Below, in pieces: positions 3,451-46,025 of a stretch of 64,000 nt of DNA. The DNA comes from Squalus acanthias. Taxonomy: Eukaryota. The stretch's first letter is position 1; every line of letters starts with the position of its first letter. The translations under genes and the position numbers were made by a program. The stretch spans positions 129,582,001-129,646,000 of the forward strand of contig CM059431.1 in NCBI GenBank assembly GCA_030390025.1, written 5' to 3'. The notes beneath the pieces were generated by a model. It was not told where the DNA came from. It did not search any database and saw nothing but the letters and a program-made list of their open reading frames with translations.

Positions 3451-4331
3451 ATGGGTGCCATTTATACTGTCTCACCTTGGTCCTCCGAATCGGACCACTA
3501 TGAGCCAGCAGCACCAGGCACACCAGCAGCACCAACAACACAACACCACCAACCTTCTCCTCAACCACCTGATGCTGCACAAGACAGAGGGCATCAGCAC
3601 AGGGCTGCACCATGCCAGAGGTGATACCCCCAACACTGGGTATACAGGCAGAGGATGAGCTTCCTCAACATGACTGAGCAGCAGTGCCATCGCAGACATT
3701 TGCACATTGCTGGAGCAAGATCTGCAGCCCAGAGGAGCAGGTGGACACGCCTTAGGAAATGGCTGTCAAAGTCACCAGCGCCCTCAACTTCTTCGCCTCA
3801 GGCTCCTTCCAGGGATCTGCAGCAGGCATTTGCAGCATCTCGCAGTTGGCCGCCCACAGATGTATCACACAAATCACCGATGCCCTGTTTGACAAGTCAG
3901 CCAATTATATCAACTTTGCCACTGATCAAGCCACTGTTACTGAGCAGGCATTCAGCTTTGCCACTCTGGCTGGCTTCCCATGGGTGCAGGGCATCATCGA
4001 CAGCACACATGTGGCCATCAGGGCACCCCATCATCACCCAGGAGTCTTTGTCAACCGCAAGGGCTTCCACTCCCTCAATGTGCAGCTAGTCTGCAACCAT
4101 AGGAAGATCATCATGGATGTGTGTGCCAAAATCCCTGGCAGCTGCCATGACTCTTTCATGCTGCGCCAGTCCACCCTCCCTCAGCTCTTCGCTCATCCAA
4201 ACAGACTTTCCAGCTGGCTGCTTAGAGACAAGGGCTATCCACTGAAGACGTGGCTCATGACACCCTTGAGGAGGCCAAGTACTGAGGCCGAGGAGAGATA
4301 TAATGAAAGCCACATTTCCACCAGATGTGTC
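3451..4331 (+). pseudogene. Harbinger DDE transposase, 5' part
   Basis: [56 protein letters not shown]; frameshifted N-terminus. Confidence 0.92.
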
Positions 4332-4905
4332 TGTAGAATTCGCAATATAATCGCGATTTTATAAATAAGGAGGAGACACATAGTTTCGTACAAACAGCTT
4401 TATTTCAGCAGAATGCTGTCAGGTTTTCAAAGTGGACACAAGCAGCCTGTAAAATGGCCGCCACGCCTCGTGGCAGAACATTCTAGACTTTTCGATAAGC
4501 AGACAAGATGGCGTTCCAATAAACATTTGTGCGAGATCGATCAAGACTCAGCACATTTGAGATAATACACAAGACATTATGGGTTTGCAGTATACACATA
4601 AATACTGGAATCGGTCTCCCAGGTGCGAATAAAGGGCTATTGTACCAAGCGATCAAGAACCCATCCAAAGACATTAATATGCAAAATCCCCATGACTCTA
4701 CGATGAGAGAGCCGTTTGCGGGTAGTTACAGAAAACATTTGGAAGCCCCAAAACCCCTCCAGGGAGAATACTGACCGGTTACACATTGGGAAAAGTATTA
4801 ACAGGTACTCAGGCAGTTACGAGTATCCCCGAAACCCATTAAACGGAGATCACCCTATACAAGAAGTTTGAGCGCCAAAACTCTGACAAAAGAAAAGACA
4901 TTAAG

Positions 4906-4940
4906 ATTGGGCGGGAAAAAGAGGAGTTTCAGCACTATAA
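4906..4940 (+). promoter_or_regulatory. Putative LTR promoter (inverted CCAAT, GC box, TATAA)
   Basis: ATTGG-GCGGG then CTATAA at 4935-4940; GC box and TATAA also kept in the diverged inverted LTR (14536-14563). Confidence 0.6.
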
Positions 4941-5774
4941 CTGTAAACTACAACCGTCCATCTTTCTCTTATCCTCTTGACTCCTTGCCGCTTGCCTCGT
5001 GTCTCTGCCTCTTGCAGCTCTTGCTGTTTGACTTGCTGAAAGACTATTGAACTTTCTGATCCGCCAGGATCTGCCTCGTGGCTTGCCGCAAAGATCTGTG
5101 TGGAACTGGGCTGTGAAGCCTTGAAGCGGGCACACCATCCCGAGAAGTCGGTAAATGGTGTTGGAACCGAAGGCCCGAGATGAGATGAGATGAGATGAGA
5201 AGAGAAGAAGACGACCATACGTATCGCCACGGTCAGTAAGCCCCGACCGCGCCTGTAGGTCGAATAGACACTTTCTTTGCCCAGGAAGACTATCTTTTGA
5301 GTTCTACAGAACTGGCATCGGAAGACCATTCTTCGAATTTTATCGCATCGGGGCGAGGGCACAGGAAGACTATTTTTTGAGTCGTGTCGGAACTCCGAGG
5401 ACAACACAGATCTTCATGACAACAGACGGTCCAGCCTGCTAGCCGGAGCAGAAACGAGTAAACAAGTGGGGTACAGAGACCCCTGATCAACACGTGGGTG
5501 ATCAGGTGCTGCGGTAAAAACATCCGAGCAGAGTTTTCGGAATTCTCCGAGTTATCACGAGTGGTGAGCATGAGTCTCGATCCTACAAATCTAGTTTAGG
5601 TCAGGTATTGATAGGGGAGGGTTTAAGTTTTAAGGATAATTGTAATGTGTGCCCCCATTTACGATGTGTCGTTCGTTCCTCGTTTCCCAAAAATTAGTTA
5701 CATAACTGCGTGTAAGATTGTACTGTCATTAATCTGTGCTTATGACATGTATTTCGTAATCTTGAATAATATGC

Positions 5775-5780
5775 AATAAA
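5775..5780 (+). terminator. LTR poly(A) signal (3' LTR copy at 17729-17734)
   Basis: AATAAA present in all three LTR copies, ~235 bp before the LTR end. Confidence 0.6.
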
Positions 5781-6019
5781 GATTTTCCATTTCACACTAA
5801 TCAACCGGGTCTACCTGAGTTTTCTCTGCATTATTGCTCTCGCACCTAAGTCCAGTGTCAGAACCGTAAGGGCGAGTGGGTCGAACCACTCACAGGGGTC
5901 TAGTGTTACCAGGCTGGCTGGAGACCAGAACAGGCAACAAGGCCTAACCTCACACTAGCGCCCAGGCTGAGCACAGAGCCACAGGCGGTGTCACACACGT
6001 GTCAAAACCCTCACAGAAA

Positions 6020-7816
6020 ATGGCGACCGCGGCAGGACACTGGCAGCAAGAGGGTAATGTGTTAGACTTTGGTATGATTGGGCGAAATGTCATGGAAGAG
6101 AGAATAGCAGATTATGTGTTCGGAAAAGTGAATTTGACCAAGAAATGGATAAGTGACCTGCTGGTGGATAAGCATCCACTAGAGGCGGCCGAGAGGTGGA
6201 CAGATAGCAAGGAACATAAAAAGGCAGTGGAGAAAGCGGTCTGGCTGATGTGCTATAAAAGACAAGTCCAAATTTCGGACCAGGTCATCACAGCGCAAGC
6301 AGCTCGGATCAGGCGTTTAGAGGTGGAAATGGACGAGAAGGTCGCGGGGGGGCAGCAGCTCATCACGACTTTAAATGCGTTGCATCAAGAACGCCAGGTA
6401 GTCACCAACCACCATAAAACAAAAATAGATTACCTCGAGTGCCAGGTCACTGAGGCAAAGTTAAGTGAGGGTAGATTAAAGGAACGATGTGCCTGCCTAG
6501 CTGCCCAAATAAAAGCCCAGGAAGAGAGCTTAACGGGGGTTAGGGCGGCATATAAGATGGCCCTCGAGGATAAATTTCAGGGGGCCGATCACAGCGTCTG
6601 CCAAAAGGAGATAGAGCACCTTAAAAGGGCCGTGAACAAAGCGCACGGCATGGTGTGCCTTATCAGTCCGTCAGCACACCAGCCGCTAGTGGATGAGGGA
6701 TTTCAGAAATCCCCACCGAACAAAGCAGAGGAAGTATTAGCCACTATGCCCTCCGCGCTACCCAGCTATTCGGAAACCTGGGTAAGGGAGGAAGTGGTGG
6801 AAGTAACGAAAGAGCCCACTGAGGTAGAAGTGAAGCCGGGACCGTTGTGTCCGGTCACGGGTATCAAAAGGGGCCCGAACAGAGACAGTGGGGAAGAAGG
6901 GGATCTCCTCAACCAGCTTGTGTTGCCTCACAGCTCACACCAGCTGAGGATTATGATCAGTCACGTACGGAAGCTGGCCGAGTCAGACGACCCTTCCGTA
7001 CATTTTAGGGAAATAGAGCAAACCGCAGCCATTAACGGCTGCGACGATGGGGAAACAGCAAAGATGCTGTTATTCTCATTAGATAGCTCGATCCTTCAGT
7101 GTCTCTCAGACGAGAGCAAGAGGGGAACTAATACCTATGGGGCACTAAGAAATGAGGTCCTAGAAGTGTTGGGAGCAGACGATGAAGGTCCGTTTGTTAG
7201 ACTGGGACAGATGGAGGGAGAACCCCCGAAGGTTTTCGCCGACAGGCTGTGGCCAGTATACCAGCGTAGCTGCCCAGGTGCGCCAGAGCGCGCCGATGTG
7301 GAAGGCGTCGGTTTAACTCATTGGCTCAGGTGTATAGTAACCAACAGTTTGCCAGCCGTCAGGGAGCAGGCAAAAGCGTGGTTTGATCCCACTAACCCCG
7401 CCACTACAGAGGAGTCGGTCCGAAATCGACTCACGGTAGGGTACCGTAATACCAGGAGTACGGGAGCACGTCCCCTTAAGGGAAAGGTGCGTGAGGCACG
7501 ACCCGCAGCCCCGGCTCAAAAGGAGTGGCATCAGGAGGGTAACCGCGCCCCGCAGGCCAGCAATGCTTGTTACGGGTGTGGGAAGACAGGGCACTGGCGC
7601 AAGAACTGCAGGAACCCTTGGAAGGATTCCAGGGATAAAAATCCCGCAGCCCGAGCCCAGGCGCCTGTCTCTGATAGGGAAGCTAGTGCACCCATCCATC
7701 CCGACGCGATCGAAACAGTGTTGGGAGCCATGCGTAACCTCATGAGTGCGCATGGAAGGGTGGCGGTTGCTACCGGCCCCGCAGGTGCCACAGCCCCGTC
7801 CAATAGTACCCAATGA
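6020..7816 (+). CDS. gag: Gag, 598 aa, intact: N-terminal coiled coil, capsid with MHR-like QMEGEPPKVFADRL, one CCHC knuckle
   Basis: Open ORF; CYGCGKTGHWRKNC at 7568-7609; AAAATGG start context. Confidence 0.9.
   Translation: MATAAGHWQQEGNVLDFGMIGRNVMEERIADYVFGKVNLTKKWISDLLVDKHPLEAAERWTDSKEHKKAVEKAVWLMCYKRQVQISDQVITAQAARIRRLEVEMDEKVAGGQQLITTLNALHQERQVVTNHHKTKIDYLECQVTEAKLSEGRLKERCACLAAQIKAQEESLTGVRAAYKMALEDKFQGADHSVCQKEIEHLKRAVNKAHGMVCLISPSAHQPLVDEGFQKSPPNKAEEVLATMPSALPSYSETWVREEVVEVTKEPTEVEVKPGPLCPVTGIKRGPNRDSGEEGDLLNQLVLPHSSHQLRIMISHVRKLAESDDPSVHFREIEQTAAINGCDDGETAKMLLFSLDSSILQCLSDESKRGTNTYGALRNEVLEVLGADDEGPFVRLGQMEGEPPKVFADRLWPVYQRSCPGAPERADVEGVGLTHWLRCIVTNSLPAVREQAKAWFDPTNPATTEESVRNRLTVGYRNTRSTGARPLKGKVREARPAAPAQKEWHQEGNRAPQASNACYGCGKTGHWRKNCRNPWKDSRDKNPAARAQAPVSDREASAPIHPDAIETVLGAMRNLMSAHGRVAVATGPAGATAPSNSTQ
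6021..6038 (+). other. Primer-binding site, tRNA-Arg(UCG)
   Basis: TGGCGACCGCGGCAGGAC is complementary to the 3' 18 nt (GUCCUGCCGCGGUCGCCA) of vertebrate tRNA-Arg-UCG as I recall it; lies 5 nt after the LTR end. Confidence 0.85.
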
Positions 7817-10800
7817 CTAGAGCCCGCACAGCCCGTCTACCTGTGTCCGCTCAGCTATGATGCGTGGAAGCGACCCCTGGTGGAGATGGAGGTATAGAAA
7901 CAGAAGGGTAGTTATTTGTTGGACACGGGAGCTTCTTGCACCGTGATTCATACAGATAGCCCTTTTGACTCACCGCTATCTACCAAGGTCCCATTCACAT
8001 TAGCGGGGTTCACGTTAAAGAACAGGCTGGCGCGTTCTCCCTTCCGCTATCCATTCATTTAGGAGCACTCCACACCACGTGGAAGTGCATACTGATGAAA
8101 TGGCAAGAGGGAGGTGGGAGAGGCATCCTCGGGTCCGATCTCCTATCGGGGCACGGGATCCTCGTGGACCTCAGGAATCACTGTCTCTGGGGGGCTAAGG
8201 GTGGAGAAGGCGAGGTAGTGGTAATTCCGGGGGAGGAAGAAACAGGGGCCCTGTGTACCATGAAGCCATCCGGAGGCTACGACCTCGGGCTTATGGTCGC
8301 GGATGTCCCAACGGACATGCAAACGTACGTGTCAGATAATATGCATGCGTTTGCAACCCACAAGCACGATTGTGGGAGGGTTACCGGGTTTGAGGTCAGC
8401 GTAGATGGGGACCCCATGACCCGGCCCCAAAAGCAGTATAACTTCCCCAAAGAAGCAGAACCCGACATGGAGACAGCAATGTCCTCCTTGGTGCAGCAGG
8501 GCATGTTGAGGCCGATAGCCACACACGTGAACTCCCCATTATGGCCGGTTAGGAAGCCGGGTAATTCGTGGAGGGCCACGGTGGACTACAGAGTCCTTAA
8601 CAGTAACATTCCCGCCTGCGCGCCCACGGTAGCAGCAGTCGCTGACCTAATAGGGAGTATCCCAGCGTCCGCGACCACGTTCACGGTGCTGGATATCTCG
8701 AACGGTTTTTGGTCCATCCCGCTGCGGTGAGAGGACCAGTACAAGTTTGCCTTTACTTTCAAAGGACAACAGTACACATGGAACTGTCTGCCACAGGGTT
8801 TCCACAACAGCCCCAGTATTTTCCATCAGTGTATGGCAGGAAGTTTAAAGGAGTTTAGTCAGCCCAATCAGATAGTACAGTACGTGGATGATTTGCTCCT
8901 ATTTACGGATCAAAGGGAGGAGCATGGACCACTGCTGGCCGAGTTATTGGAGCTGCTAGCGAGAAAGGGTTTTAAAGTGAACCCTAAGAAAGCACGTATC
9001 GGTCAGCAGGAAGTAAAATTCCTGGGGCTGACCATTCGCGCTGGGGAAAGAGCCATAGATATGGCTAGGAGGGAGTCGGTGCAAGAGTTACCGATTCCCA
9101 ACACCATAAGGGGTGTGAGGTCCTTTTTGGGACTGACCGGTTATTGCAGGGATTTTATCGAAGACTATGCGGCCACAGCGGCGCTGCTGCTCCGACTCCT
9201 CCATAAGGGAGTGGAGTGGTCTTGGGACGAGGGCTGCCAGGCAGCCTTCGAGAAGTTAAAAAGGGATTTGCAGACCGCGCCAGCTTTAGGGGCCATAGAT
9301 GGGGGGAAGGAGTTTTTCCTGGAGGTAGCTGCCAGCGGGGACAGCTTGAGCGCTGTGCTGCTCCAAGAGCGTCACGGCAAGCTGAGGCCGGTTGTCTATT
9401 CGTCCAGGGTGTTAACGGATGTGGAGAGGAGTTTCTCCAACTGCGAAAGGCACCTTTTAGCCACGCATTGGGCTGTGAAAAGATCAGCGATCTTCACAGG
9501 GCTCTCTCCCATCACTCTCCTCACCCATCACACACCAACTAAGATGCTTCTAGATGGGAGGATTAAAGATGGGACCGTAAGCAGCGCGCGTATTGCGCAC
9601 TGGACCCTTCTTCTTTCCCAGATGGATCTTAGAGTTAAAGGTCTTTGCGAGCCCAGGCTTGCGGCCAATTTGGTATACCCCGGTACAGCCCAGCAGTGTT
9701 CGGTGGAAGGGGTGTGGGAAGTCAACATAGGTTTGCGGGCCGGGATACATCCCACTGGGCGCGAGATTTATGTTGATGGTTCCAGCACAGTGTCCGCTGG
9801 CGAACGACTCACAGGGTGTGGAGTTTATGACCCTGCGGCAAACCTTGCCCTGGCGATTAAGCTCCCCAGCACCATGAGCGCGCAGCAGGCTGAGCTGTCT
9901 GCAGTGGTGTACGTCGTTACCCACCCAGAAATTTTCCCAACCCCATACACGATTTGCTCGGACAGTATGTTCACATGCAATTCGTGTACGGAATACCTGG
10001 CCATTTGGTCCCGCCGTGGATACAACTCCGCGGACGGGCGACCTTTAACGGTGAAGCCCTTGCTGGAAAAGATCCTAGCAGCAGTAGGGGAGGAAGGGGA
10101 GATTTTCATCCATAAGGTGAAGGCTCACTCCTCCACAGAGCCCCGTGGGGAGGGCAACCAGCAGGCGGATGCGCTAGCCAGGGAGGGTGCCCGCAACGGC
10201 ATTTTCTGGGACCCCTATGGGCCCAGACCCATGGCAGCGATCCAAGGCAGGGACGGGAATCCCGGGAACACCAGGGTAGCATTGCCCCTAGACCTTAAGA
10301 CCGTCCAGAACCAGGATCCCGCCCTAAAAGCAGTCCTCAGAACCCTTGCTGAGGGGAAGCAGGTAGAGGGTCCGTACAGTACGGCAACCCTCTCAGTCAA
10401 GGAAGGCATGCTGTTCCGCGAAGAGCAGTGGGTTGTGCCGCAGCAGCACAGGAGGGAATTCCTCCAGTTGGCTCACGAGGGACCGGGGGCAGGGCACCCC
10501 GGGCCCGAGGTTACCTGGCAACGGGTAGAGCAAGCGGGATGGTGGCCGGGGCTCAGGGAACAGGTCCGCGAGTTCTGTGCAAGCTGTCTCGTGTGCGCTG
10601 CAAATAACCCAGACCCCCAGAAAAGGAAAGTGCCCATGAGGCACGTCAGGAGGGTAGAGGGACCATGGCAGTCTATACAGATCGACTATATAGGGCCCCT
10701 GCCCACCACCCAGGGAGGCTATAAATACTGCCTCGTCTTGGTGGATGAGTTTTCCAAATGGGTGGAAGCCTTCCCCTGTAGAACAGCTACGGCACTGGGT

Positions 10801-12314
10801 ACTGCAAAAATCTTGGTCCGGGAAGTGTTCTCGCGGTGGGGACTTCCCCGTTTTGTGGAGTCAGACCAAGGGAGTCATTTCACCGGCCAGGTGATGCAGA
10901 ACACCCTCATGCTTTTGGGCATTGAAGGGAAATGGCACGTAGTGCACAATCCCCAGTCATCCGGGATTGTTGAACGCATGAACCGGACCCTGAAGGAAAA
11001 ATTGAGGAAAGAGACTACGAACTCGCCCCAAAAATGGGCGGAGGTTCTGCCTTTAGTCCTCATGGGGGTCCGGGCCAGTCAGTCGAAAAGTACGGGGTAT
11101 TCCCCGCACGAGGTGATGACTGGGAGGATCATGCGAACCCCCACCCATGTGCTAGCGCCGGTGCTCACGGAGGGTCAGCTCCAAGAGATAAGCAGGGACA
11201 AGTTCGCCCAGACCCTCTTGGAGCGCCTGAAGCAGGTTTATGAGCAGGCAGCTGGGAACATGGGAAGGCAGCATCAGGCAATCGCCTGTTGCTGGAACCC
11301 CGCAAAACGCGGGAGTGGGAAGTAGGAGACCAGGTCATGGTCAGAAACTACGCCAGAGTAGGGAGTCTGGAACCACTGTATATGGGACCCTACAACATTG
11401 TAGATAAGGCGAGTCCCATGGTATACGCCGTAAAGGTACCTCGGCGCACTAAGTGGTTCCACGTAAACCAGTGCAAACTGTACAAGCCAGGTGCACAAGG
11501 GCCAACCACAGGGGCCAAACCTGCGAGTGGGGAATCGCAGCCAGAGGTAGGGCCACAGGGCACACAGGCAGGCAAAGCAGCTTGCATCAGGGGAGGGGAC
11601 ATCCTGGAAAATTGTGAGACATTTTTGTGGGGTTGGGAGTCAGATGAGGATAGTGAAGATAGTGAAAGTGAGGATAGTGAAGATAGTGACACAAGCGAGG
11701 AGGAGCGGGAATCGGAGGACGAAAGGGTCGCCCCCGATTCAGGTATAGGAGGGACAGGGGCTGCAGATAGAGATCCACAAAGGGTGGAGGCCGAAGCTGC
11801 AGGTCCTGAACGCAGGGGGGAGGAGCTAGGGGAGGCGGAGCCAGCCGCTGTGGTGGGACCACAGGGCGTGGCGATGGAAGCCTCAGAGCCCGAGCCGCCC
11901 GCCTTGAACGTCTTGCCCTCGAGGGAGGTAGGGACTGCGAGTGAAGGGCCGCCTACTGGGCCAAGTAGGGCGGTGCCACAAGTTGCAGATCCCGAGTTCA
12001 GGGAGGCGGAGCCAGGGGAGGCGGAGCCAGCGACTGTGGCGGGACCACAGGTCGCCACGGTGGAAGTCTCGGAACCCGGTCCGTCGGTCCTGGAGTTCCT
12101 GCCCCCGGTAGCTCTCCGTAGGTCGGGTCGGATACCCCAGCCCAGGAAGGTATGGTCAAGTCCCCAGACTGTCCCAAGGCGTAGGCGCAAGGCTCAGGCA
12201 GCCCAGGGAGAGCCCAGTCCCAGCGCAGCAGCAACAGGCTGCGGCAGATCAAAGGGAGGGGTCAATGCCCTCCCACCGTCGGGAAAGGCTCGGGGCAGCC
12301 TTTTCAGAATTTAA
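7817..12314 (+). pseudogene. pol: Pro-Pol (PR, RT, tether, RNase H, IN, long C-terminal tail) with 4 lesions: TAG 7895, 1-bp deletion ~8015, TGA 8728, 1-bp deletion ~11280
   Basis: LLDTGA (DTG 7922-7930), LPQGFHNSP, YVDD 8881-8892, IYVDGS...AELSA...SDS...GNQQADALA, HHCC zinc finger, D10684-D10864-E10972 (D-35-E), GPY motif. Confidence 0.93.
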
Positions 12315-12614
12315 ATAGGCCGCCCTGGGAACGGGCGGCGCTGTACAGTCATAAGGTTAAGGATAAGGTTATAGTTTTCAATATAAGGTTATAAGGTTAT
12401 AGTTTTAAATCGGTTTAAGTCGGTAGTTTAATTTTGTTTAATAGAAAGAGGTAAAATGATGACAGTTTTAGAGATAGGATTAGTTAAAGTTTATCCAGCG
12501 CACATGTCTTCTTACGTGAGGCGAGGTCAGGGGACCCGCTCACCCTTCACAAAAGCCAGAGACTCTTGCGAGGCTGGCTACCTCATTCTATCTGATCACA
12601 GGAACCAAGGAAGG

Positions 12615-13667
12615 ATGGAACGAATTCTAGTATTGCTCGCGGCAATCGGATGTGGATTGGCCTATCGAGGCCACACCAAGGATGTCGTGGTGTTTGGATG
12701 CTCCGGGGACACGGCCCCCATCGCGGTGGATGGGACCGGAAGACGAGAGGCTGAGGAGACCACCACCTATTTCCACAAGGGAAGGTGGCCAGGATGGCTG
12801 GGAACTAACTCAACGGAGTATTCCAGCACATCGGGTTTTGCCTACCAAGAGACTTCTTTACTGTGCCCCAAAGTAAGGATCATCGCACCCAGGATCAGCA
12901 TCAGCGTCAGCAAACGGATTTGTTTGACTTGTAATGGGAATGTCCCATTGAGCCGATGGTGGTGGCTACGAAAGCTGAGCAAAAACATGAGGAACTCTTC
13001 GGTCGAGTGGGAGCGACTGGGTAATAATACCCATCGGACAATTACGGGGACAAACGGACAAGTGAGAGTCTGTTGGGACAAATGGTGGGAACCGCATGAG
13101 GGAATTTATGTATGTATGTGGGGGTCAAAATACGTTTGCCCCAAAGGCATCTCCATATTTTTCATTAATCAATGGCAGGATAACGGACAGGGGATGAGGT
13201 GGGATGCGAGCACCAGGGGGTGCGGGGCCCCATACTCCCCGATCCCGGTAAATGCCACTGAACTCATTACGCGCCCACGCAAAGCCCCGCCCACGATTCC
13301 GGTGGTTCTAGCTAAGGAAGAAGGGTGCCCTAAAACCAGTAAGGGACCCGGGAATGGTTTGGTACTGGTCCCCACAGACCAGATACTATTTCAGGGGGTA
13401 CATTACGCGGTGGCCTCGGTGATTTTAAATCTCACCGAGGTGCGGTTACCAGAGTGGTGCCCCAAAAAGACGGAACAGTTATATCAGGTCCTGTTGACCA
13501 AGATGTTCAGACAATTCTATGAGTTCGATTTCGCGGAAATTGATAAAACAAGTTTGTACACCGCACCACATGAAGTTTTGGATCAGGTGGGGAGGCAAAG
13601 AAGGGGTGTTGTGAACGACGCGTTCACTGCTTTCAACACAGGTACATCTGTGGTCAACGCTCTAGAC
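12615..13667 (+). pseudogene. env: Env 5' part: signal peptide, Ig-like domain, F2-like region, furin site, fusion peptide
   Basis: MERILVLLAAIGCGLA signal; several N-x-S/T sites; RQRR 13593-13604 then GVVNDAFTAFNTGTSVVNALD; candidate splice acceptor TCACAG|G at 12601. Confidence 0.85.
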
Positions 13668-13669
13668 GA

Positions 13670-15142
13670 AATGTACGAAATGGAAAATCTTTATTGCATA
13701 ATATTTAAGATTACGAAACACATGTCATAAGCACAGATTAATGACAGTACAATCTTACACGCAGTTATGTAATTAATTTCAGGGAAACGAGGAACGAACG
13801 ACACATCGTAAATGGGGGCACACATTACAATTATCCTTAATACTTAAAACCCTCCTCTATCAATATCTGTCCTAAGCTAGATTCGTAGGATTCGAGACTC
13901 ATGCTCACCACTCGTGATAACTCGGAGAATTCCGAAAACTCTGATCGGATGTTTATCACCGCAGCGCCCACGTGTCGATCAGGGGGTCTCCTGGCCCCAC
14001 TTGTTTACTCGTTTCTGCTCCGGCTAGCAGGCTGGAACGTCTGCTGTCATGAAGATCTGTGTTGTCCTCGGAGTTCCGACTCTACTCAAAAAAAGAGTCT
14101 TCCTGTGCCCTCGCACTGATGCGATAAAATTCGAAGAATAGTCTTCCTGTCAGTTCTGTAAAACTCGAAGAAGTCTTCCTGGCAAGGAAAATGTCTATTC
14201 GACCTACAGGCGCGGTCGGAGCTTACTGACCGTGGCGATAAGTATGGTCTTCTTCTCTTCTCATCTCATCTCATCTCATCTCATCTCATCTCGGGCCTTC
14301 GGTTCCAACACCGTTTACCGACTTATCGGAATGGTGCGCCCGCTTCAAGGCTTCAGAGCCCAGTTCTACACAGGTCTTCGCGACACGACACGAGGTAGAT
14401 TCGAGCGGATCGTAAAGTTCAACAGTCTTTTTGAAAAGAGACACGAGGCAAGCAGGAACAAGACGGCGAGTCAAAAGCAGCCACGAGGATAAACACCAGC
14501 AAGATAAGAGAAAGATGGACGGTTGGAGCTTGTAATTATAGTGCAAAATCTTTCGTTTCCCGCCCAACCTTAATGTCTTCTCTTTTGTTAGGGTTTGGCG
14601 CTCAAAAGTCTTGTATAGGGTGATCTTCGTTTTAATGGGTTTCGGGGCTACTCGTAAACGTCTGAGTACCTGTTAATATTTCTCCCATTGTTTAATCGGT
14701 CGGCGTTCTCCCCGGAGGGGTTTTGGGGCTTCCAAGTGTTTTCTGTAACTACCCACTAACGGCTCTCTCATCGTAGAGTCGTTGGGATTTTACATATGAA
14801 TGTCTTTGGATGGGTTCTTGATTACTTGGTACAATAGCTTTTATTCGTACCTGGGAGACCGATTTCAGTATTTATGTGTATACTGTGAACCCATGATGTC
14901 TCGTGTATTATCTTCAATGTGCTGAGTCTTAATCGATCTTGCACAAATGTTTACTGGAACGCCATCTTGTCTGCCTGTCGAAAAGTCTAGAATGTTCTGC
15001 CACGAGGTGCGGCGGCCATTTTACAAGCTGCTTGTGTCCACTTTGAAAACCTGACAGCATTCCGCTGAAATAAAAGCTGTTTGAACGAAACTATGTGTTT
15101 TTCTCCTTATTAATAAAATCGCGATATATTGCGAATTCTACA
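13670..15142 (-). repeat. Inverted U3-R-only LTR of a sister subfamily inserted in env
   Basis: Reverse complement of LTR 4332-~5800; about 20 differences in the first 250 bp by eye; no TSD. Confidence 0.92.
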
Positions 15143-15843
15143 GTGGCCGGGGAGCACACATAATACTGTGTCCCCAGCACTTGAATGCCTTTTTAACACC
15201 ACAGTGCGGGTTCAGAACGGCTGGTGCCAAGTCCATGAATTGCACCATGGAGGCAATGGCACAAGATCATGTGCCTCCGCAGGTAGCATACATCGGGGGT
15301 GGAACATATTGTGTTACCACTGCAGCGCAACACTACCAGCATGGAAACCGTAGCCGGTGTCCGGTAAGTGACAGCAGTTTCTGTTTCAAACCCAGGGCGG
15401 AAGTTCAAGTAGCTCAACAGCGAATTGTCCCAATCCCTGAACCATCCACGGTTCATCTTACCGTCAAAGAGAACTTCACCGACCTGCAGCAATTCGTCGC
15501 ACACTTCGGATACCTCATTCCCCCTCTCCCTGAACACCTCACCAAGCTTTTGAAAGCCGTCGCGGTATCACAAAAACATTTTTACACACTAGAACAGAAA
15601 ACTGTCGAGATAGGGACAGAAATTCTGGACATAGTAATTCCACCGTGGTGGAATCTGTTCTCCAACATTGAAGTGCCTTCCTGGATTAGAATAGCCTCCC
15701 ACATTTTAGTTGTATGCCAAGTGTTTATTGTGGTATACTTATTGGTCGTGCATTGTAAGAGAGGCAAACGCCTCACCAAGAACGAAAACACGGGAGAGTG
15801 GCGAGAACGTTACGTGCGCGTGCACGATGAAAGCACCGTGTAA
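15143..15843 (+). pseudogene. env: Env 3' part: Cys-rich F1-like region, heptad, TM anchor, basic tail
   Basis: Open frame from 15145: ILCPQH..PQC..NCTM..YIGGGTYCV..RCP..FCFKP, then LTKLLKAV..LEQKTVEI, TM IASHILVVCQVFIVVYLLVV, KRGKR. Confidence 0.85.
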
Positions 15844-16279
15844 TCAGAAAATGGCGTCACTCCCGTTTGCCACGTGTGCCTCGGAAGTGTTGTAATCGAT
15901 CGTGATTTTTTTCAGAGACTGTAATTACGTTTGGAACTCGACATGTTTAAGAGTTGGTTTTGATTATTTTGGTGATGGTGTTGTTGTTGAATATGATTGT
16001 TTGGTTTTGTTTTGTTTTTCTTTTCCCTGAATAAAAAATATGAACATACAGGTGATACGAGAGGCATCGGCCTGGTTACGCCTGGAAGGAAAACAAGTGG
16101 TGTAAGTTTTAAAGGCAAATAATGCCTGCGGTGTTATAAGAATGTAATTTTCCTGGGAAATAAGGACGACACAAAGACCCTAGATAGTTTAAGTTATGGG
16201 GATTTTCTGGATCTGGAGAAATCGAGATAATATTGCTCACCACAATATTTTTGATACGATAAGCGGAGTTATTCGCATC

Positions 16280-16291
16280 AACAGGAGGGAC
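16280..16291 (+). other. Polypurine tract
   Basis: AACAGGAGGGAC immediately before the 3' LTR TG. Confidence 0.75.
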
Positions 16292-17969
16292 TGTAGAATT
16301 CGCAATATAATCGCGATTTTATAAATAAGGAGGAGACACATAGTTTCGTACAAACAGCTTTATTTCAGCAGAATGCTGTCAGGTTTTCAAAGTGGACACA
16401 AGCAGCCTGTAAAATGGCCGCCACGCCTCGTGGCAGAACATTCTAGACTTTTCGATAAGCAGACAAGATGGCGTTCCAATAAACATTTGTGCGAGATCGA
16501 TCAAGACTCAGCACATTTGAGATAATACACAAGACATTATGGGTTTGCAGTATACACATAAATACTGGAATCGGTCTCCCAGGTGCGAATAAAGGGCTAT
16601 TGTACCAAGCGATCAAGAACCCATCCAAAGACATTAATATGCAAAATCCCCACGACTCTACGATGAGAGAGCCGTTTGCGGGTAGTTACAGAAAACATTT
16701 GGAAGCCCCAAAACCCCTCCAGGGAGAATACTGACCGGTTACACATTGGGAAAAGTATTAACAGGTACTCAGGCAGTTACGAGTATCCCCGAAACCCATT
16801 AAACGGAGATCACCCTATACAAGAAGTTTGAGCGCCAAAACTCTGACAAAAGAAAAGACATTAAGATTGGGCGGGAAAAAGAGGAGTTTCAGCACTATAA
16901 CTGTAAACTACAACCGTCCATCTTTCTCTTATCCTCTTGACTCCTTGCCGCTTGCCTCGTGTCTCTGCCTCTTGCAGCTCTTGCTGTTTGACTTGCTGAA
17001 AGACTATTGAACTTTCTGATTCGCCAAGATCAGCCTCGTGGCTTGCCGCAAAGATCTGTGTGGAACTGGGCTGTGAAGCCTTGAAGCGGGCACACCATCC
17101 CGAGAAGTCGGTAAACGGTGTTGGAACCGAAGGCCCGAGATGAGATGAGATGAGAAGAGAAGAAGACGACCATACGTATCGCCACGGTCAGTAAGCCCCG
17201 ACCGCGCCTGTAGGTCGAATAGACACTTTCTTTGCCCAGGAAGACTATCTTTTGAGTTCTACAGAACTGGCATCGGAAGACCATTCTTCGAATTTTATCG
17301 CATCGGGGCGAGGGCACAGGAAGACTATTTTTTGAGTCGTGTCGGAACTCCGAGGACAACACAGATCTTCATGACAACAGACGGTCCAGCCTGCTAGCCG
17401 GAGCAGAAACGAGTAAACAAGTGGGGTACAGAGACCCCTGATCAACACGTGGGTGATCAGGTGCTGCGGTAAAAACATCGAGCAGAGTTTTCGGAATTCT
17501 CCGAGTTATCACGAGTGGTGAGCATGAGTCTCGATCCTACAAATCTAGTTTAGGTCAGGTATTGATAGGGGAGGGTTTAAGTTTTAAGGATAATTGTAAT
17601 GTGTGCCCCCATTTACGATGTGTCGTTCGTTCCTCGTTTCCCAAAAATTAGTTACATAACTGCGTGTAAGATTGTACTGTCATTAATCTGTGCTTATGAC
17701 ATGTATTTCGTAATCTTGAATAATATGCAATAAAGTTTTTCCATATCGCACTATTCAACCGGGTCTACCTGAGTTTTCTCTGCATTATTGCTCTCGCACC
17801 TAAGTCCAGTGTCAGAACCGTAAGGGCGAGTCGGTCGAACCACTCACAGGGGTCTAGTGTTACCAGGCTGGCTGGAGACCAGAACAGGCAACAAGGCCTA
17901 ACCTCGCACTAGCACCCAGGCTGAGCACAGAGCCACAGGCGGTGTCACACACGTGTCAAAACCCTTACA
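16292..17969 (+). repeat. 3' LTR (1678 bp)
   Basis: TGTAGAATTC...ACCCTTACA followed by TSD TGTC. Confidence 0.95.
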
Positions 17970-17973
17970 TGTC

Positions 17974-23970: not shown

Positions 23971-25767
23971 GAAAACAAACCTGTGCTACTTGCACTGGCT
24001 CTGAAAGATGAAAATTTTAACAGTATTAAGTCTATCAAACAGTTGATCCAGAGTTGGGAAATCCGCTAGCCAGACATCAAGACTGAAACTATTTAACATT
24101 GGTAAAAGAAAAATGTGACTTTTCTTCATTCCACGTGGCTGAGGATATCACAACAGAATGAATGTTACCAATGCAAATCAGACTTTTTAAATAGAACAGA
24201 GATGTAGCTGAATGGAAACAGAGGAGCAGCTTTGTTCTCTGTGCTTTTGAATTTTACGAGTTCTATGATGATGTGCTAGTCTTTGTACTTAGTTGAGAAG
24301 CACCATTGCAGCATCTTTGAAGATTATGCATGCTTCAAGGCATACTTAATTATGTTAATTAAGGCTGGTATATGGCTTGCAATGACTGGAGAAAAGAGGG
24401 GCCAGTTGTCAAAGTGACATCTGTAATAACTATAAATAACTATATTAGTATGCCTGCAAAACATGTGAATGATGGCTATACTCTAAACTAAAAATGACAT
24501 GTTTTCAGTTATAAAATAACACTGTACACTAGATATGTGATTGAGTATGCTACATAAACAAATATTTCATTTCTATGTATGCAAGTTATGTACTATTTTA
24601 TGTATAATGGACAAACTTGACTTTAGTCAGATATTTAAATGATCGGACATAGACTTTCCTTCTAGTCATTCCACACCTTTTTTTGGGTGACTGTATTATT
24701 TTTTGCCCAGTTTTACGCAAGGCTGTACAATCCTTGCAAAGTGTAGTTGCATGCTGTATGAAACTCAAAACATGCTTCATGCTATTTGAGGACTTCCTTC
24801 ATCAGAGCATCAACCTTTGCTTCAAAAGCAAAGCTTTCTGACTTGCACTTACCCTGCCATTTTTAGTCTTTACTGTTAGAATAATTTCCAAAAGGTAGTG
24901 GTACGTATCTGGGTCATTTCAATGTGCATTTGATTAGATGGTTGAATTCATCACTACACTGAAAAGTTTTTTAAAATGTTAGAAATTTGGCAATAAATTG
25001 ATATGTGATGTACTGTTGAAGTGCCTCTAAGAACCACCAAGAACAAAATTCAGACATATATTTTCTCCAAACTTACTGAGCTTCCCCAAAATAATTTTGG
25101 TTCTACCTGGCTATTAAAAGGGTTCATTTTTAGGTCACAATCACAGTTTGTGAGAAAATTTACATTTTATTTTATCGGATCAAAACAAACAGCAGGTAAA
25201 GAGTACACAGTTAAAAGAACCACCCCTAAAAAAAATTGGCGATGACAGGGACTGCATTTACACAGATGCATAGTATGTGAAAGCCAATATTCTATGATTC
25301 TATAATAATCAGGTCAGTGGCATTTCTTCAGAATCCTTGACGGCCAGGTTTTATTAAAGGATTTCTATACAAAGCAGATTGAACAAGAACCTCTTTACCT
25401 CAATGAGCAAGAATGTGATTGATCAAATAATAATTGATCAACCAATTAAAGCCAGTTAGGTTACCTGTGTGACCTGAATACAACTTTACCAGTGGCTGTC
25501 AAAGTCACCACCGCCCTCAACTTCTTTGCCTTTGGATCCCTCCAGGGCTCTGCTGGAGACATTTTCAGGATCTCGCAGTCAGCGACTCACAAATGTATAA
25601 GACAGGTGTCTGATGGCTTGTTTACCAGGGCCGCCAATTATGTCAACTTTGCCTGCGATGACGCCAGTCAGAAGTCGTAGGCACTTGGGTTTGCAGCTCT
25701 GGCCGGCTTCCCATAGGTGCAGGGCGTCATCGTTTGCACACATGTGGCAATTAAGGCACCTATAGAT

Positions 25768-26598
25768 AAGAACATAAGAACATAAGAAATAGGAGCAGGA
25801 ATAGGCCACTTGGCCCCTCGAGCCTGCTCCGCCATTCAATAAGTCATAGCTGATCTTGGGCTCAAAGCCACTTCCCAGCCCGCTCCCCATAACCCTTCAC
25901 TCCCTTATCTTGCAAAAACCTGTCTATCTCCAACTTAAATGTATTTAATGACCCAGCCTCCACAGCTCTCTGCGGCAGAGAATTCCACAGATTTACGACC
26001 CTCTGAGAGAAGAAATTCCTCCTCATCTCAGTTCTAAAAGGGCAACACGGTGGCATAGTGGTTAGCACTGCTGCCTCACAGCGCCAGGGACCCGGGTTCA
26101 AATCAGGCCACGGGTGACTGTCTGTGTGGAGTTTGCACATTCTCCCCGTGTCTGCATGGGTTTCCTCCGGGTGCTCCGGTTTCCTCCCACAGTCCAAAGA
26201 TGTGTGGGTTAGGTTGATTTGGCTATGATAAATTGACCCTTAGTGTTAAGGGGGATTAAATACGTGGGGTTACGGGGATAGGGTGGGATATGTGTGGCTC
26301 GATGGGCCGAAATGGCCTCTACCTGCACTGTGGGGATTCTGTGATTCTGTGAGCCTTTACTCTGAAACTATGCCCCCGAGTTCTAGATTTCCCCACGAGG
26401 GGAAACATCCTCTCTGCATCTACCCTGTCGAGCCCCCTCAGTATCTTATATGTTTCAATAAGATCACCTCTCATTCTTCTAAATTCCAATGAGTATAGGC
26501 CCAACCTGCTCAACCTTTCCTCATAAGTCAACCCCCTCATCTCTGGAATTAAGCTAGTGAATCGTCTCTAAACTGCCTCCAATGCAAGTATATCCTTG
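25768..26598 (-). mobile_element. CR1 3' fragment inserted in the Harbinger 2 transposase
   Basis: LYSLEFRRMRGDLIE, FFSQRVVNLWNSLP; (TTCTTATG)n tail; AGAT duplicated at both ends. Confidence 0.9.
26040..26352 (+). mobile_element. tRNA-derived V-SINE (HE1-type)
   Basis: A box TGGCATAGTGG, B box GGTTCAAATC, V-domain TGTGTGGAGTTTGCACATTCTCCCCGTGTCTGC..GGTTTCCTCCGGGTGCTCCGGTTTCCTCCCAC, CR1-like tail (GATTCTGT)n. Confidence 0.88.
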
Positions 26599-28884
26599 AG
26601 ATCAACCAGGAATGTTCATCAACCGCAAGGGCTTCCACTCCATCAATGTGCAGCTGGTGTGCAACCACAAAAAGATCTTTATGCAGGTGTGCGCAAGATT
26701 CCCGGGCAGCTGACATGATGGTTTCGTCCTGCAGCAGTCCACCCTCCCAGACGTCTTCACACCTAGAAGCAGAGTTACCAGCTGGGTGCTCAGAGACAAG
26801 GGATACACACTTAAAACGTGGTTGATGACACCGCTCAGAAACCCAAGGAATGAGTCCTAGGAGCGAAACAATGAATGCCGTATGGTCACCAGATGTATAA
26901 TCAAACAAGCCATCAGCATGCTGAAGATGCATTTCAGGTGCCTGGACCGATCTGGAGGTGCCCTTTAGCACGTACCAACCAGGGAATCCAGAATGGTCAT
27001 GATGTGCTGCGCTCAGCACAACATTGCCCAGCAGCGAAGTTTGGACCAGCAGGAGGAACAAAGCGCAGAGCACAGAGCCTCTTCAGAGGATTCCGAGGAG
27101 GAGGAGGAGGAAGCCGAAGGTGATACGGGCAGTGCACCACCAGCGGCGCACATTGCTGCTCGGGATGTCATAATTATTGCGAGGTTCACTTAGGTTCCAC
27201 CAGTGCACCCATCCAGGAACCACATGTTAAAGCCACTTTTGCACCCCCAATGCCACTAACACAAAGTAGTCCTGCAATCAGCCAAGCATCTCTTTCACAG
27301 ACCCCCATTGGTCACTGTAAATTCATGTCTTCCCATTCATCATCAAAAAACTGAAAAGCCCACTTGTTACCCAGCAACCAAGAATGGGCAAAACGGAAAA
27401 GTGGTGCAAAAGAACAATATTTATGTGCTTTAAATACACAACAGAAACTTAACAATTTAACAATGTCTAACACATCCATGTGCATACCCTTGTACAACTA
27501 AATATCTTTACTCTTCCTTTTCCTCGTGCTTCTGCGTAGTGGAACCCTTGTAGCTTCAGCAGAGGTAGAGGCAGGCTGCTCAGATCTCTGCTCCGACTGT
27601 TGAGTTGCTCTTGGCCGACGTCTTCTGGGTTTTGGAGCCCATGAGGGCCCCGCCAAAGACTGCACCACCTGCACCTGTGCAGGGGCAGACTCGGCCATCG
27701 AGACACAAGGCAGCATTGTCAGGTACTGGCCTGTGGGGGTGGGTGGGGGGGGGGGGAGGGGGCGGGGTGATGGTGGAGACAACGGGTGAGAAGAGGAAGC
27801 AATTGAGAAGAGGAAGCACTTCTGTGTAAGGCCCCCTCCGGTTACCTGCCTCTCCCTGCTGTTCTCTGCTCTCTTCTCCTGCAAGGAGTGAAAGAAGAGA
27901 CCAGTAATGAGTAAGAATAATGGCACGTGTTAATGCAATGGATGGAGAGCATTTGTTGAGGGTGACGATAAGGAATAGGCATGACATTGCATAGGGATGA
28001 CGGTGAGTGTCAGTGCTGGATAGATAGATGGCGATGTGGGGAAGTGCGTAGAGAGAGAGAAAGATGGGTACAGCTGCAAGGTAAGTTGGTGTGAGGAGTG
28101 ATGTGCTGGAATAGACTTGAGAAGGCAGAGTGAGGGGGTTGGGGTGATACGCACATCAGGATGTAGGGCAATGTACCCTTACTCTCACCTTTCCTGCCCT
28201 GCTTAGGGCATTGAAGCGCTTCATGCACTGGATCCAGGAGCATGGCACCATGCTCCTGCTGCTGACCTCTTCGGCAACCGCCAAACACACCTTCTTTGTC
28301 CCACCAGCAGGCTTCTACCTCCCGTTGCTAGGGAACTGTATCTCCCTCCGGGTCCTCACAGTCCCAAGCAGCACATCCACGGAGGCGTCGGTGAAGCTGA
28401 GCAGAGCCTTTGCCCATCTTGACTCCATTCCAACACTTCTTTCTCTCTCCATGACAACTCCGAATGCTTCAACTGGTATGTTTGGAGTGTCATTTTAAAT
28501 AATGGAGTTGAGATTGCATCATATGGGTCGTCATTACGGCCACTGACATTAACTGGACGGGAAACCTTGAAATCAGATGTTAATGAACAGACTGCGTTAA
28601 AAAGCCATTGACAGACGCGCTGTACATATTTCTGGATTTCCCACGTACTATCGGGCCCCCCCTCCCATCCCCACCCCACTCCCAGCACGTCTCCGCATTA
28701 AATTAGAGTCAGTATGAGGACAAATATTGCCCAATGTGTGTATGTCTATGGATTACAACAAATTGGGTGACAACGTAAAGAATTAGCAAAATGTGACCAA
28801 TAGCTTCAGAAAAACAGCTGGCACTGTCCCCAAAAAGCTCACAAACCAAAATCTGCTCTAATGATAAGCATATGACAAGTAGTA

Positions 28885-30678: not shown

Positions 30679-31839
30679 ATGGGGGCTGCAATGATTGGGG
30701 GCGTCGTCCTGCTCCAGCTGAATCGGAGGATACCGAGACGCAGACAGAGAGTGGCAATGATGGCCAGACGGAGGAGGGCCATCAGGCACATGTACAGGAG
30801 AGCTTACCCTCCCAGGGTATATCGTGAACAGCTCTCCTACATCCATATGTCCGAGGAGCTGTGTTTGCGGAGGCTGTGATTCAGCAAGGAGGTGGTCACT
30901 GAGCTCTGCCACCTGCTGCAGCCAGATCTGCAGCCTCAGCTGAGGTCCAGGACGTCTCTGTCGGTGGCAGTGAAGGTCACAGTGGCGTTGAACTTCTACG
31001 CCACTGGCTCATTCCAAGCTGCTGTTGGGGACCTCGCCAATATCTCCCAGTTTGCGGTGCATCGCTGCATCCGGCAGGTCACCAATGCCCTCTTCAGAAG
31101 GAGACGAGACTTCATCTCTTTCCCTATGACCCCAGACAAGCAGCGTGACCGTGCTCTGGGCTTTGCGAGGGTAGCGGGCTTCCCCATGGTGCAGGGCGCC
31201 ATTGACTGCACGCATGTGGCTTTGCGTGCTCCGCGAGAGAATGCAGAGGAATTCAGGAACAGAAAGGGGTTCCATTCCTTGAATGTGCAGTTGGTCTGTG
31301 ACCACAGACAGGTGATACTCGCTGTCAATGCCCACTATCCGGGCAGCTGCCACGATGCTTTCATCCTGCGCCAGACTACTGTGGCAGAAGTTTTCGAGGC
31401 ACCGCATCAGCCAGTTGGTTGGCTTCTGGGGGACAAGGGGTACGCATTGAGCACCTGGCTGATGACACCGCTCCGTACGCCAAACACCCCTGCTGAGCTG
31501 CGGTACAATGAAAGCCATCAAGCAACCAGGAACATTATTGAGCGCACAATCGGCGTGCTGAAACAACGGTTCCGCTGTCTGGACCATTCCGGAGGAGCCC
31601 TGCAGTACTCGCCTGAGCAAGTTTCGAACTTCGTAGTGGTGTGCTGCATGTTGCACAACATGGCAATCCTCAGGACCCAGCCAATGCCACCAGGCCTTGC
31701 AGCACCACCAGAGGAGGAGGAGGAAGAGGAGGAAGAGGACGAGGACGATGATCATCAGCAGCACCAAGGCAGGAGGGCGGCCCACAATGGTCAAACTGCA
31801 AGGGCCGTCCGTCAACGACTAATAGCAAGCCGCTTCTAG
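30679..31839 (+). pseudogene. Harbinger DDE transposase with one in-frame TGA (30877-30879)
   Basis: GAIDCTHV, PGSCHD, LLGDKGY, IERTIG; RRL*FSKE consistent with CGA>TGA. Confidence 0.92.
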
Positions 31840-34013: not shown

Positions 34014-34409
34014 GCTTGGCAGCAAAATGGATTCACAGGTCTCTCCAGGCTGAGATTCAAGGCTGCAATGAGCAGGGTGTGGCTGGGGAGCAAGTGGCCC
34101 CCCCCGCTTTAAGAAGTGTCCGGCGCCAGTGTGTCTGTGTTCCCTCGCTAACTGGCAGCAGCTGCGCTGCGCTCACGCGCTGAGTTAGCGCCTCACTCCT
34201 TGGCCTTTGCGCCTTAAGACAGGTGTGCAGTGCCTGCTTTAGCGCTCCACTCACCTCCCGGGGCGGTAAAAGTGAAGTTTCCTGTCAGTGCCAATAATTA
34301 GCGCCAGGCGCTAATATTTGCGTCCGGACGATATTTGCGCCCCAAATGGGGCGCGACCTAATTTCTACCCCTATATAAATACAAGTTGTTGTTGTTGTTG
34401 TTGTTGTTG

Positions 34410-45551: not shown

Positions 45552-46025
45552 CTACCTCGTGAAGGTGTTGGCTACCAGCTGCTCCCGAGCAGCCTTACTT
45601 TGAGCAGCAGTTGGCTCTTCCCCATCATGCCTTCCCACAGGCACATTGGCATTGTCCACGTCCTCCATTTCTGCAGGTAGTTCATCTGCAGCGTTAAGGG
45701 TCAGTCCTTCCTGCAGGGCAAAGTTATGCAAAGCACAACAGGCCACCACAATCTTTGCCACTTTCTGAGGAGAATACTGCAAGGTCCCCCCTGACCTGTC
45801 CAGGCACCGGAAGCGTGATTTCAGAACTCCAATTGTCCTCTCCACCACTTGCCGTGTGGACACGTGTGCCTGGTTGTATCTCTCCTGAGCCTCATTATTG
45901 GTCTTGCGGTAGGGAGTCATCAGCCATGGTCTTAGCGGGTAGCCCTTGTCGCCCAATATCCATGCGGATCCTGGAGGCAATGCGTTGAGGACGCCATATA
46001 AGTCAGAGTTACGGAGGACGATTGC
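45552..46025 (-). pseudogene. Harbinger 4 transposase C-terminal half
   Basis: [45 protein letters not shown]; first catalytic Asp region missing. Confidence 0.9.

Follow-up and report, generated by a model that had tools for sequence, protein, structure and literature searches.

At positions 4332–17969 of the 64-kb stretch of DNA analyzed here (the window, whose numbering is used throughout), two long terminal repeats (LTRs) enclose gag, pol, and env genes, and the question raised by this locus is to which branch of the retroviruses it belongs. In the initial annotation, the element was taken for a young lokiretrovirus-like provirus of complete architecture in the genome of a cartilaginous fish. 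The present analysis favours, with a probability of roughly 0.7, a 13.6-kb provirus that is defective and belongs to a very abundant elasmobranch endogenous retrovirus (ERV) family. This family would constitute a deep retroviral branch, separate both from the published lokiretrovirus clade and from the crown groups of gamma-, epsilon-, beta-, lenti-, and foamy viruses. The provirus is fairly young yet defective, pol carrying four lesions and env being interrupted and partly deleted.

Structure of the Provirus and Its Integration Site

The order of the elements is LTR, primer binding site (PBS) for tRNA-Arg, gag, a TGA stop codon, pro-pol (protease, reverse transcriptase (RT), tether, ribonuclease H (RNase H), and integrase (IN)), env, a purine tract, and LTR. 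In self-comparison, the two LTRs differ by 13 mismatches in 1,679 aligned columns and by two indels of 5 bp and 1 bp; they are 99.2% identical, with a divergence of 0.78%. The provirus is flanked by TGTC on both sides and has split a transposase frame of the host, of which the left flank gives a DDE_Tnp_4 match (E 6.7e-22). A paralogous Harbinger-type copy at 26860–26960 aligns to the joined flanks with a 4-bp gap if both TGTC are kept, and gapless once one of them is removed, by which integration of the provirus and duplication of 4 bp at the target site are demonstrated.

In 18 of 18 nucleotides, the PBS complements the 3′ terminus of a host tRNA-Arg(TCG) plus CCA, and this tRNA would prime minus-strand synthesis. 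A 20-mer diagnostic of the tRNA-Arg 3′ end occurs at 435 places in the host genome versus 0 for a reversed control, and ARAGORN called tRNA-Arg(tcg) in all three host loci scanned; Rfam and ARAGORN scans of the window gave no matches. The gag frame has its first ATG at 6020–6022, overlapping the PBS, so that PBS and gag are separated by nearly no leader. At the other end, a short purine tract (AGGAGGGA) precedes the 3′ LTR. Transcription would proceed from U3 and end about 20 nt past the AATAAA located at 5775–5780 of the 5′ LTR, where the R region is likely to end.

The gag frame is open throughout and contains an exact match to the CX2CX4HX4C motif, its Pfam match remaining under the cut-off (17.8 versus 20.8 bits). 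Translation would be initiated at ATG 6020; in all 73 scored host copies, the gag match begins at residue 1. The Pfam matches of pol comprise RVT_1 (3.6e-24), RT_RNaseH_2 (9e-22), RNase_H (2.1e-20), Integrase_H2C2 (7.5e-18), and rve (1.9e-14), with weak SH3-type matches, including a weak Tf2-1 SH3 match, downstream of a pol frameshift. The lesions of pol were placed by alignment to the 84%-identical relative P0001 as well as to shark and frog proteins. They are a TAG at 7895–7897, a frameshift at ~7990–8011, a TGA at 8728–8730, and a second frameshift at ~11262–11280. Gag-Pol would be made by read-through of the gag TGA, which is inferred because 16 of 40 pol copies are open for 1,496 amino acids, which approximates the span between this TGA and the end of the pol tail. 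The tail (11487–12314) contains proline-rich repeats of 62 residues, and intact copies retain it in the pol frame (~1,496 amino acids open).

In most structural respects, the initial annotation was accurate, since LTRs of ~99% identity, target-site duplication, PBS, purine tract, intact gag, an RT of retroviral style with LPQGF and YVDD, tether plus second RNase H, a gypsy-like IN with GPY, and four pol lesions are all present. The complete architecture it had described stands in so far as N- and C-terminal parts of env are found; it does not stand for env as a whole, which has an inverted U3-R piece in place of a portion of the fusion subunit.

Position among the Retroviruses

The RT tree comprised 73 rows and 263 columns, with the in-frame stop of the window written as X. 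Isolate genomes were taken from IMG/VR and labelled according to Pfam, with MLVIN_C standing for gamma- or epsilonretroviruses, Spuma_A9PTase for foamy viruses, RVT_thumb together with Integrase_Zn for beta-like viruses, and RVT_connect for lentiviruses. In this tree, the retrovirus-like rows are set apart from 22 Ty3/gypsy rows with a support of 99/97. The grouping of the RT with retroviruses, together with the succession LTR-PBS-gag-pro-pol-env-purine tract-LTR and the target-site duplication, makes the element a retrovirus in the broad sense. A clade uniting the isolate retrovirus L014, presumably a snakehead-retrovirus-like record, with the foamy, beta, lenti, gamma, and epsilon rows has a support of 80/91, and the inner clade without L014 one of 94/92. 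Both exclude the window and P0001, which join each other with 100/100 and stand in an unresolved basal grade with frog, coelacanth, and bird NYNRIN-like proteins. From this placement it follows that the RT nests neither in the epsilon and foamy crown groups nor in Ty3/gypsy.

Pairwise comparisons are available for each domain. In BLASTP, frog proteins were best for RT (51%), tether (49%), RNase H (37%), and IN (47%), that is, in four of four domains. For the RT, identities amount to 50–52% with frog proteins, 45% with L014, 39% with epsilon- and gammaretroviruses, and 35% with foamy viruses as well as with Ty3/gypsy. Among solved structures, gammaretroviral RT was matched first (2.9e-52), followed by foamy (1.4e-35) and Ty3 RT (6.4e-26). 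The frog and coelacanth Pol proteins, which are annotated as "NYNRIN-like" or "GIN1" (P0003–P0008, P0010), have the domain order of the provirus and are ~40–43% identical to it over pol; a clade of shark, frog, and coelacanth sequences is one for which RT alone gives no resolution. Bird "NYNRIN-like" proteins with an RT (P0025, P0030) are found in the same unresolved basal grade, on a long branch. The lineage would represent a deep branch of retroviruses, with frog and coelacanth elements as its nearest relatives.

The env Gene, Its Inverted LTR, and the History of the Copy

Within env, a 1,466-bp piece of an LTR lies in inverted orientation. It is 87.6% identical to the provirus's own LTR and is assigned to U3-R because the retained part stops about 20 nt past its AATAAA. 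Compared with P0099, a natural protein of 448 residues related to the fusion subunit, residues 1–21 and 221–429 are retained, and the fusion subunit is short by ~200 residues. U3-R is the portion of the LTR that complements the 3′ end of the genomic RNA of the element, and at the junction (window 13677–13700; LTR 1444–1462) a short microhomology of the GAAATG type is common to env and the inverted LTR. This junction may have originated when a template switch occurred at a long RNA hairpin.

The right junction, between LTR start and env, recurs at three other places with 93–94% identity; the left junction was found only in the window among the best 40 of 2,576 candidates. At the loci L064/L065, env is interrupted exactly at P0099 residue 221 by a complete inverted LTR and is colinear otherwise, both env sides and the inverted LTR each being 92–93% identical to the window. 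At L063, the same right junction continues into a whole element from which pol is deleted. The flanks of these loci are unlike those of the window, except for one 193-bp repeat. Because three unrelated loci carry the inverted LTR at the same env site, the provirus probably descends from an env-interrupted lineage. According to this scenario, an element of the second LTR subfamily would have inserted into env once and been reduced to a solo LTR, after which copying of the interrupted element would have continued; the line of the window would afterwards have lost the U5 part and ~0.6 kb of env. The progenitor would have carried the inverted solo LTR in env before entering the present site, where the LTRs have since diverged by 0.78%. 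If its env was already interrupted, the provirus would never have had a working env of its own. It would have been copied either by intracellular retrotransposition or with proteins supplied by intact relatives. Contigs of four sequencing runs, which are only guessed to be RNA, contain no joint marking a spliced env mRNA; in the same runs, depth is uneven, being higher over LTR and env than over gag-pol, and is not readable as expression.

Cleavage of Env at RQRR would yield a large surface subunit together with a class I fusion subunit that resembles paramyxovirus/pneumovirus F and foamy-virus Env. A model of the P0099 fusion subunit, built on a 20-row alignment, is weak (predicted local distance difference test score, pLDDT, 55.8); in it, a long helix is followed by a beta-rich domain and then by a second helix and the anchor. 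With this weak model as query, Foldseek retrieved 60 chains at E ≤ 0.001, of which the ten best are F proteins of metapneumovirus, measles virus, respiratory syncytial virus, and parainfluenza virus 5 or foamy-virus Env; the top matches (PDB 7m0i, 5l1x, 8utf, 3rrr, 8rm1) extend over 360–400 columns. In a language-model search with the fusion subunit, the nearest clusters were Baculo_F (0.94) and Fusion_gly (0.93). Judged by such weak models, the fusion subunit looks F-like, in agreement with the F-like Env that the initial annotation had given for lokiretroviruses. No conserved stretch was seen in the Env alignment, a third homolog search with this alignment gave eight proteins and no new groups, and a single-protein scan of viral contigs had no matches.

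For the N-terminal subunit, a structure model was unusable (mean pLDDT 35.8). Ig-like leads (score 0.90, 162 shared features) are to be taken as a lead only. The shark fusion subunit has homologs in two frog Envs, P0084 and P0100. In the frog gene model P0006, a signal peptide follows directly upon pol, along with a stretch judged by eye to be Ig-like and to resemble the start of P0084; this continuity ties the frog pol group to the Env family of P0084 and P0100.

Host, Family Size, and Activity

The nearest named proteins are those of Heptranchias perlo (pol, 83%), Rhinoraja longicauda (env, 74%), Pristiophorus japonicus, Heterodontus francisci, and Chiloscyllium punctatum, all of them sharks or skates, and the exons of a SENP2-like protein of the sawshark P. 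japonicus match one host contig at 75–92%. On these grounds, the host is regarded as an elasmobranch, which accords with the cartilaginous fish that had been proposed.

Copies were searched for in the 3.71-Gb host assembly, all figures being first-look candidates: 4,931 for the provirus's own LTR, 3,974 for the inverted LTR type (scored copies 93–98% identical over full length), 8,864 for gag, 11,056 for the fusion part of env, and 27,177 for pol, where other families may be included. Two LTR subfamilies thus exist in the host genome. Among the copies scored, which were the best candidates, those without a stop numbered 63 of 73 for gag, 36 of 40 for pol (open frames of up to 1,509 amino acids), and 85 of 94 for env (up to 862 amino acids). 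Seven other LTR pairs, taken from the top matches, differ by 0.18–0.77%. At 1 to 2.2e-9 substitutions per site and year, which are assumed rates and may not be those of elasmobranchs, the LTR divergences would correspond roughly to 0.4–4 million years; the upper rate is implied by a table in the lokiretrovirus paper (PMC7947760). The family is accordingly judged, from these copy searches, to be a very abundant and recently active ERV family of the elasmobranch genome, and both the recent activity and the existence of at least two LTR subfamilies had been rightly anticipated.

Non-autonomous derivatives of the family are considered to have been amplified in the host as well. Tandem arrays of LTR, internal region, and LTR are present at L064/L065 (contig C7) and in host contig C229; one array, with a period of 9.2 kb, lacks pol through a deletion that joins window 7848 to 11466, and in another, LTR matches occur every ~5 kb. 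Sequencing runs of six differently labelled organisms contain 23–65% of the sampled internal-region 31-mers; near-identical copies therefore extend beyond one species label, be it in close relatives or through recent spread. In public annotations of shark, skate, and frog genomes (P0002, P0068, P0073, P0077, P0087), open reading frames (ORFs) of the family are named as host genes ("NYNRIN-like"), and some are fused to the host genes Niban 1-like, cadherin-related 5-like, SENP2, and FBXO15.

Features of the Window

Table 1: Features of the provirus and of its insertion site, in window coordinates.
Feature	Position	Strand	Description
Harbinger/PIF-type transposase frame (DDE_Tnp_4), host	3756–4331	+	split by provirus insertion, resumes after 17973
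Left target-site duplication	4328–4331		TGTC; flank comparison
5′ LTR	4332–6015	+	1,684 bp, TG...CA ends
gag	6020–7816	+	598 codons, TGA stop; N-terminal coiled-coil-like region; CCHC knuckle 7568–7609
Primer binding site	6021–6038	+	5 nt past 5′ LTR; complements host tRNA-Arg(TCG) 3′ end + CCA
pro-pol	7817–12314	+	in gag frame, downstream of gag TGA; four lesions
Protease region	7898–8250 (end approximate)	+	DTGAS 7922–7936
Reverse transcriptase	8494–9261	+	LPQGF 8788–8802, YVDD 8881–8892
Tether (degenerate RNase H; RT_RNaseH_2 / RT_RNaseH)	9223–9621	+	Pfam
Second RNase H (PF00075)	9763–10191	+	Pfam
Integrase	10435–11483	+	H2C2 zinc finger, rve core, SH3-like C-terminal part, GPY 11385–11393
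pol C-terminal extension	11487–12314	+	~275 residues; acidic Ser/Asp/Glu run 11643–11690; two 141-nt direct repeats 11781–11921, 11967–12107
env N part	12615–13676	+	signal peptide, ~326-residue surface subunit, RQRR cleavage site 13593–13604, first ~20 fusion-subunit residues
Inverted U3-R of second LTR subfamily	13677–15142	-	LTR positions 1–1462; takes place of ~0.6 kb of env
env C part	15143–15843	+	end of beta-rich head, second heptad region, membrane anchor 15691–15750, tail, TAA
Purine tract	16283–16290	+	AGGAGGGA; immediately upstream of 3′ LTR
3′ LTR	16292–17969	+	1,678 bp, TG...CA ends
Right target-site duplication	17970–17973		TGTC; flank comparison

Besides the provirus, the window contains Harbinger/PIF-type copies at 3756–4364, 25493–27698, 30880–31839, 33324–34172 (-), and 45552–46097 (-), with DDE_Tnp_4 matches of up to E 2e-39 and a Myb/SANT frame close by; the provirus is located inside one of these copies. 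Further RT fragments are found at 2184–2765 (-; RVT_1 E 2e-06) and at 37154–38320 (-; RVT_1 E 1.1e-22), both probably of the long interspersed nuclear element type. In host contig C26 (L071–L075), long tandem arrays with a period of ~1,623 bp carry tRNA-Arg(TCG) beside tRNA-Ser(GCT).

Alternative Assignments

The lokiretrovirus assignment of the initial annotation was not upheld. In the accessible part of the published supplement, all 12 YVDD contexts of lokiretroviral RTs carry motifs of the types (C/T)PFG, PLSR(W)P, and LIYVDD(I/V)L (PMC7947760); these contexts represent ~11 consensus sequences, including the early-branching one of eel and that of coelacanth, with the amphibian Loki-Xtr and Loki-Rca not among them. 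The window RT is without these motifs and reads LPQGF, PACAPTV, and VQYVDDLLL, P-Q-G being invariant in 16 of 16 rows of alignment A2, in which the window, its shark relative, and frog proteins are included. Membership of the provirus in the clade of Wang and Han, as its first find in cartilaginous fish, would be in keeping with the dual RNase H, that is, tether plus second RNase H, with the H2C2/rve integrase, which by eye is ~42% identical to the Loki-Lch consensus (100/240), and with the F-like fusion subunit, whose motif order is that of published loki Envs. The RT, however, is only ~33% identical to Loki-Lch (91/278 positions, likewise counted by eye), as against the 45% reached with the isolate retrovirus and 39% with epsilon- and gammaretroviruses. 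Env is cleaved 326 residues in, in contrast to ~110–120 residues in the loki Envs of the supplement (8 of 12 covered), where the fusion subunit starts with a peptide of the F(L/I)(G/A)G type (PMC7947760); the fusion peptide of the provirus differs from it, and a Fusion_gly Pfam match was not obtained. The naming of relatives as NYNRIN-like or GIN1-like recalls the tie of lokiretroviral IN to CGIN1, and a shark lokiretrovirus would be new, since, according to the accessible text, 0 of 6 chondrichthyan genomes were positive in that study (Wang and Han, Mol Biol Evol 2021, PMC7947760). No printed report of lokiretroviruses in cartilaginous fish was found in a search that covered sources outside subscription journals and Repbase. 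Because RT motifs, RT identities, and Env cleavage site differ, the provirus family is placed outside the published loki clade, and it is improbable that the provirus is a lokiretrovirus.

A closer contender is a foamy-like ERV proper, in which case the provirus would belong to a basal spumavirus lineage, the same as CmiFLERV or ERV-Spuma.0-Sca and XtrFLERV. As to the nesting within epsilonretroviruses, spumaviruses, or Ty3/gypsy that the initial annotation had named as contrary to its reading, the free tree excludes all of these, joining the foamy isolates to the other canonical genera (94/92) with the shark family outside; a sister position of the shark family to the foamy clade is kept by the approximately unbiased (AU) test (log-likelihood difference 10.75, p 0.062). 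Foamy viruses have a Gag without Cys-His knuckle, make Pol separately, and use a PBS for tRNA-Lys. None of this trio is found in the provirus, which, unlike spumaviruses, has a CCHC knuckle in Gag, pol in the gag frame past a stop, and a PBS matching tRNA-Arg rather than tRNA-Lys or tRNA-Asn; the space downstream of env is too small for accessory genes, and the RT is no closer to foamy viruses than to Ty3/gypsy (35% each). Neither PF03539 (Spuma_A9PTase) nor PF03408 (Foamy_virus_ENV) is matched in the window, in P0001, or in the Env relatives, whereas three of three foamy isolates match PF03539 with E ≤ 1e-79. Foamy Env (8rm1) is among the Foldseek matches, and in both Envs, the large surface subunit precedes a fusion subunit of F-like appearance. 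As far as the accessible text of the sources goes, shark foamy-like endogenous retroviruses (FLERVs) cluster with a frog FLERV, only pol having been recovered in both (PMC5512871; CmiFLERV, XtrFLERV), which fits a shark–frog group with an unrecognized env, and no Gag or Env domain was detected in a catshark "Spuma" ERV (PMC10699275; ERV-Spuma.0-Sca). The provirus family may be this already published shark–frog "foamy-like" pol lineage, and the initial annotation's own proviso, that the family might already be catalogued for the host group, may apply to shark pol sequences published under that name (PMC5512871, PMC10699275). That the provirus is a true basal spumavirus is nevertheless considered rather unlikely. 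An env-carrying, errantivirus-like Ty3/gypsy element, finally, is suggested by the H2C2 and GPY type of the integrase with its weak Tf2-1 SH3 match and by Baculo_F, from arthropods, as the nearest language-model cluster of the fusion subunit. It is at odds with the separation of the RT from the 22 Ty3/gypsy rows at 99/97, with gammaretroviral rather than Ty3 RT as best solved structure (2.9e-52 versus 6.4e-26), and with the presence of a tether and a second RNase H, where Metaviridae would have an RT inside their clade and a single RNase H; this alternative is exceedingly improbable.

Several points weigh against the assignment to a deep branch outside the loki and crown groups or against parts of the scenario built on it. 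The base of the retroviral clade has low support (58/69, 69/79, 24/0), the AU test keeps the shark and foamy clade, the foamy rows of the tree are long-branched isolate viruses only, and the tree is without published loki, Odin, or fish, shark, and frog foamy-like sequences. Since no published loki sequence entered it, the comparison with lokiretroviruses rests on motifs and identities counted by eye. Searches of the env pieces and ten Env relatives with Pfam gave no viral glycoprotein family, be it Fusion_gly, Baculo_F, or Foamy_virus_ENV, other than one weak Baculo_F match (E 0.0011) in a chimeric gene model, and a profile of the Env alignment run against PDB sequences met no F protein, but coiled-coil noise only. 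Recombination between elements could in principle produce the common env insertion instead of simple descent. The shares of open frames are upper estimates, biased upward because the scored copies were the best candidates, and gag start, R boundary, and read-through of the TGA were inferred, not observed.

Significance and Comparison with Known Systems

Cartilaginous fish are the least retrovirus-sampled jawed vertebrates, and the deep-branching ERVs published from them are known mainly by pol, with gag and env being called undetectable. For such a lineage, the provirus family provides a full genome plan, including the primer tRNA, the probable mode of Gag-Pol expression, and an Env resembling paramyxovirus F and foamy-virus Env. 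Given the abundance and many open frames of the family, the host genome lends itself to the search for a living elasmobranch retrovirus; if the assignment is correct, the lineage may still circulate in elasmobranchs, as many frames of gag, pol, and env are open and LTR pairs differ by as little as 0.2%. A practical aspect is that ORFs of the family stand as host genes, or fused to them, in public shark, skate, and frog genomes.

It may tentatively be proposed, though with more doubt than confidence, that the shark, frog, and coelacanth elements form a separate deep retrovirus branch that is neither loki nor spumavirus, characterized by an RT of canonical type, Gag-Pol made by read-through, a CCHC Gag, and an F-type Env with a large, possibly Ig-like, receptor-binding subunit. 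This bears on the question raised in the loki and Odin papers as to the origin of retroviral envelopes and the age of the F-type Env. If the proposal is true, the Envs of lokiretroviruses, foamy viruses, and the shark–frog group would all be F-like, and an F-type Env would be ancestral at the base of the retroviruses.

Among known systems, CmiFLERV, XtrFLERV, and ERV-Spuma.0-Sca, as described in the accessible text of their reports, share with the provirus family hosts among cartilaginous fish or frogs, a position near the retrovirus base, and gag and env without recognizable Pfam domains. With spumaviruses, from which it is set off by its one-frame gag-stop-pol organization and the lack of a foamy protease or Env domain, the provirus has the order of a large surface subunit and an F-like fusion subunit in common. 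With lokiretroviruses, it shares the layout LTR-gag-pol-env, a tether with second RNase H, an H2C2/rve integrase of the CGIN1/NYNRIN kind, and, in Env, the F-like order of fusion peptide, long helix, beta-rich head, second helix, and anchor.

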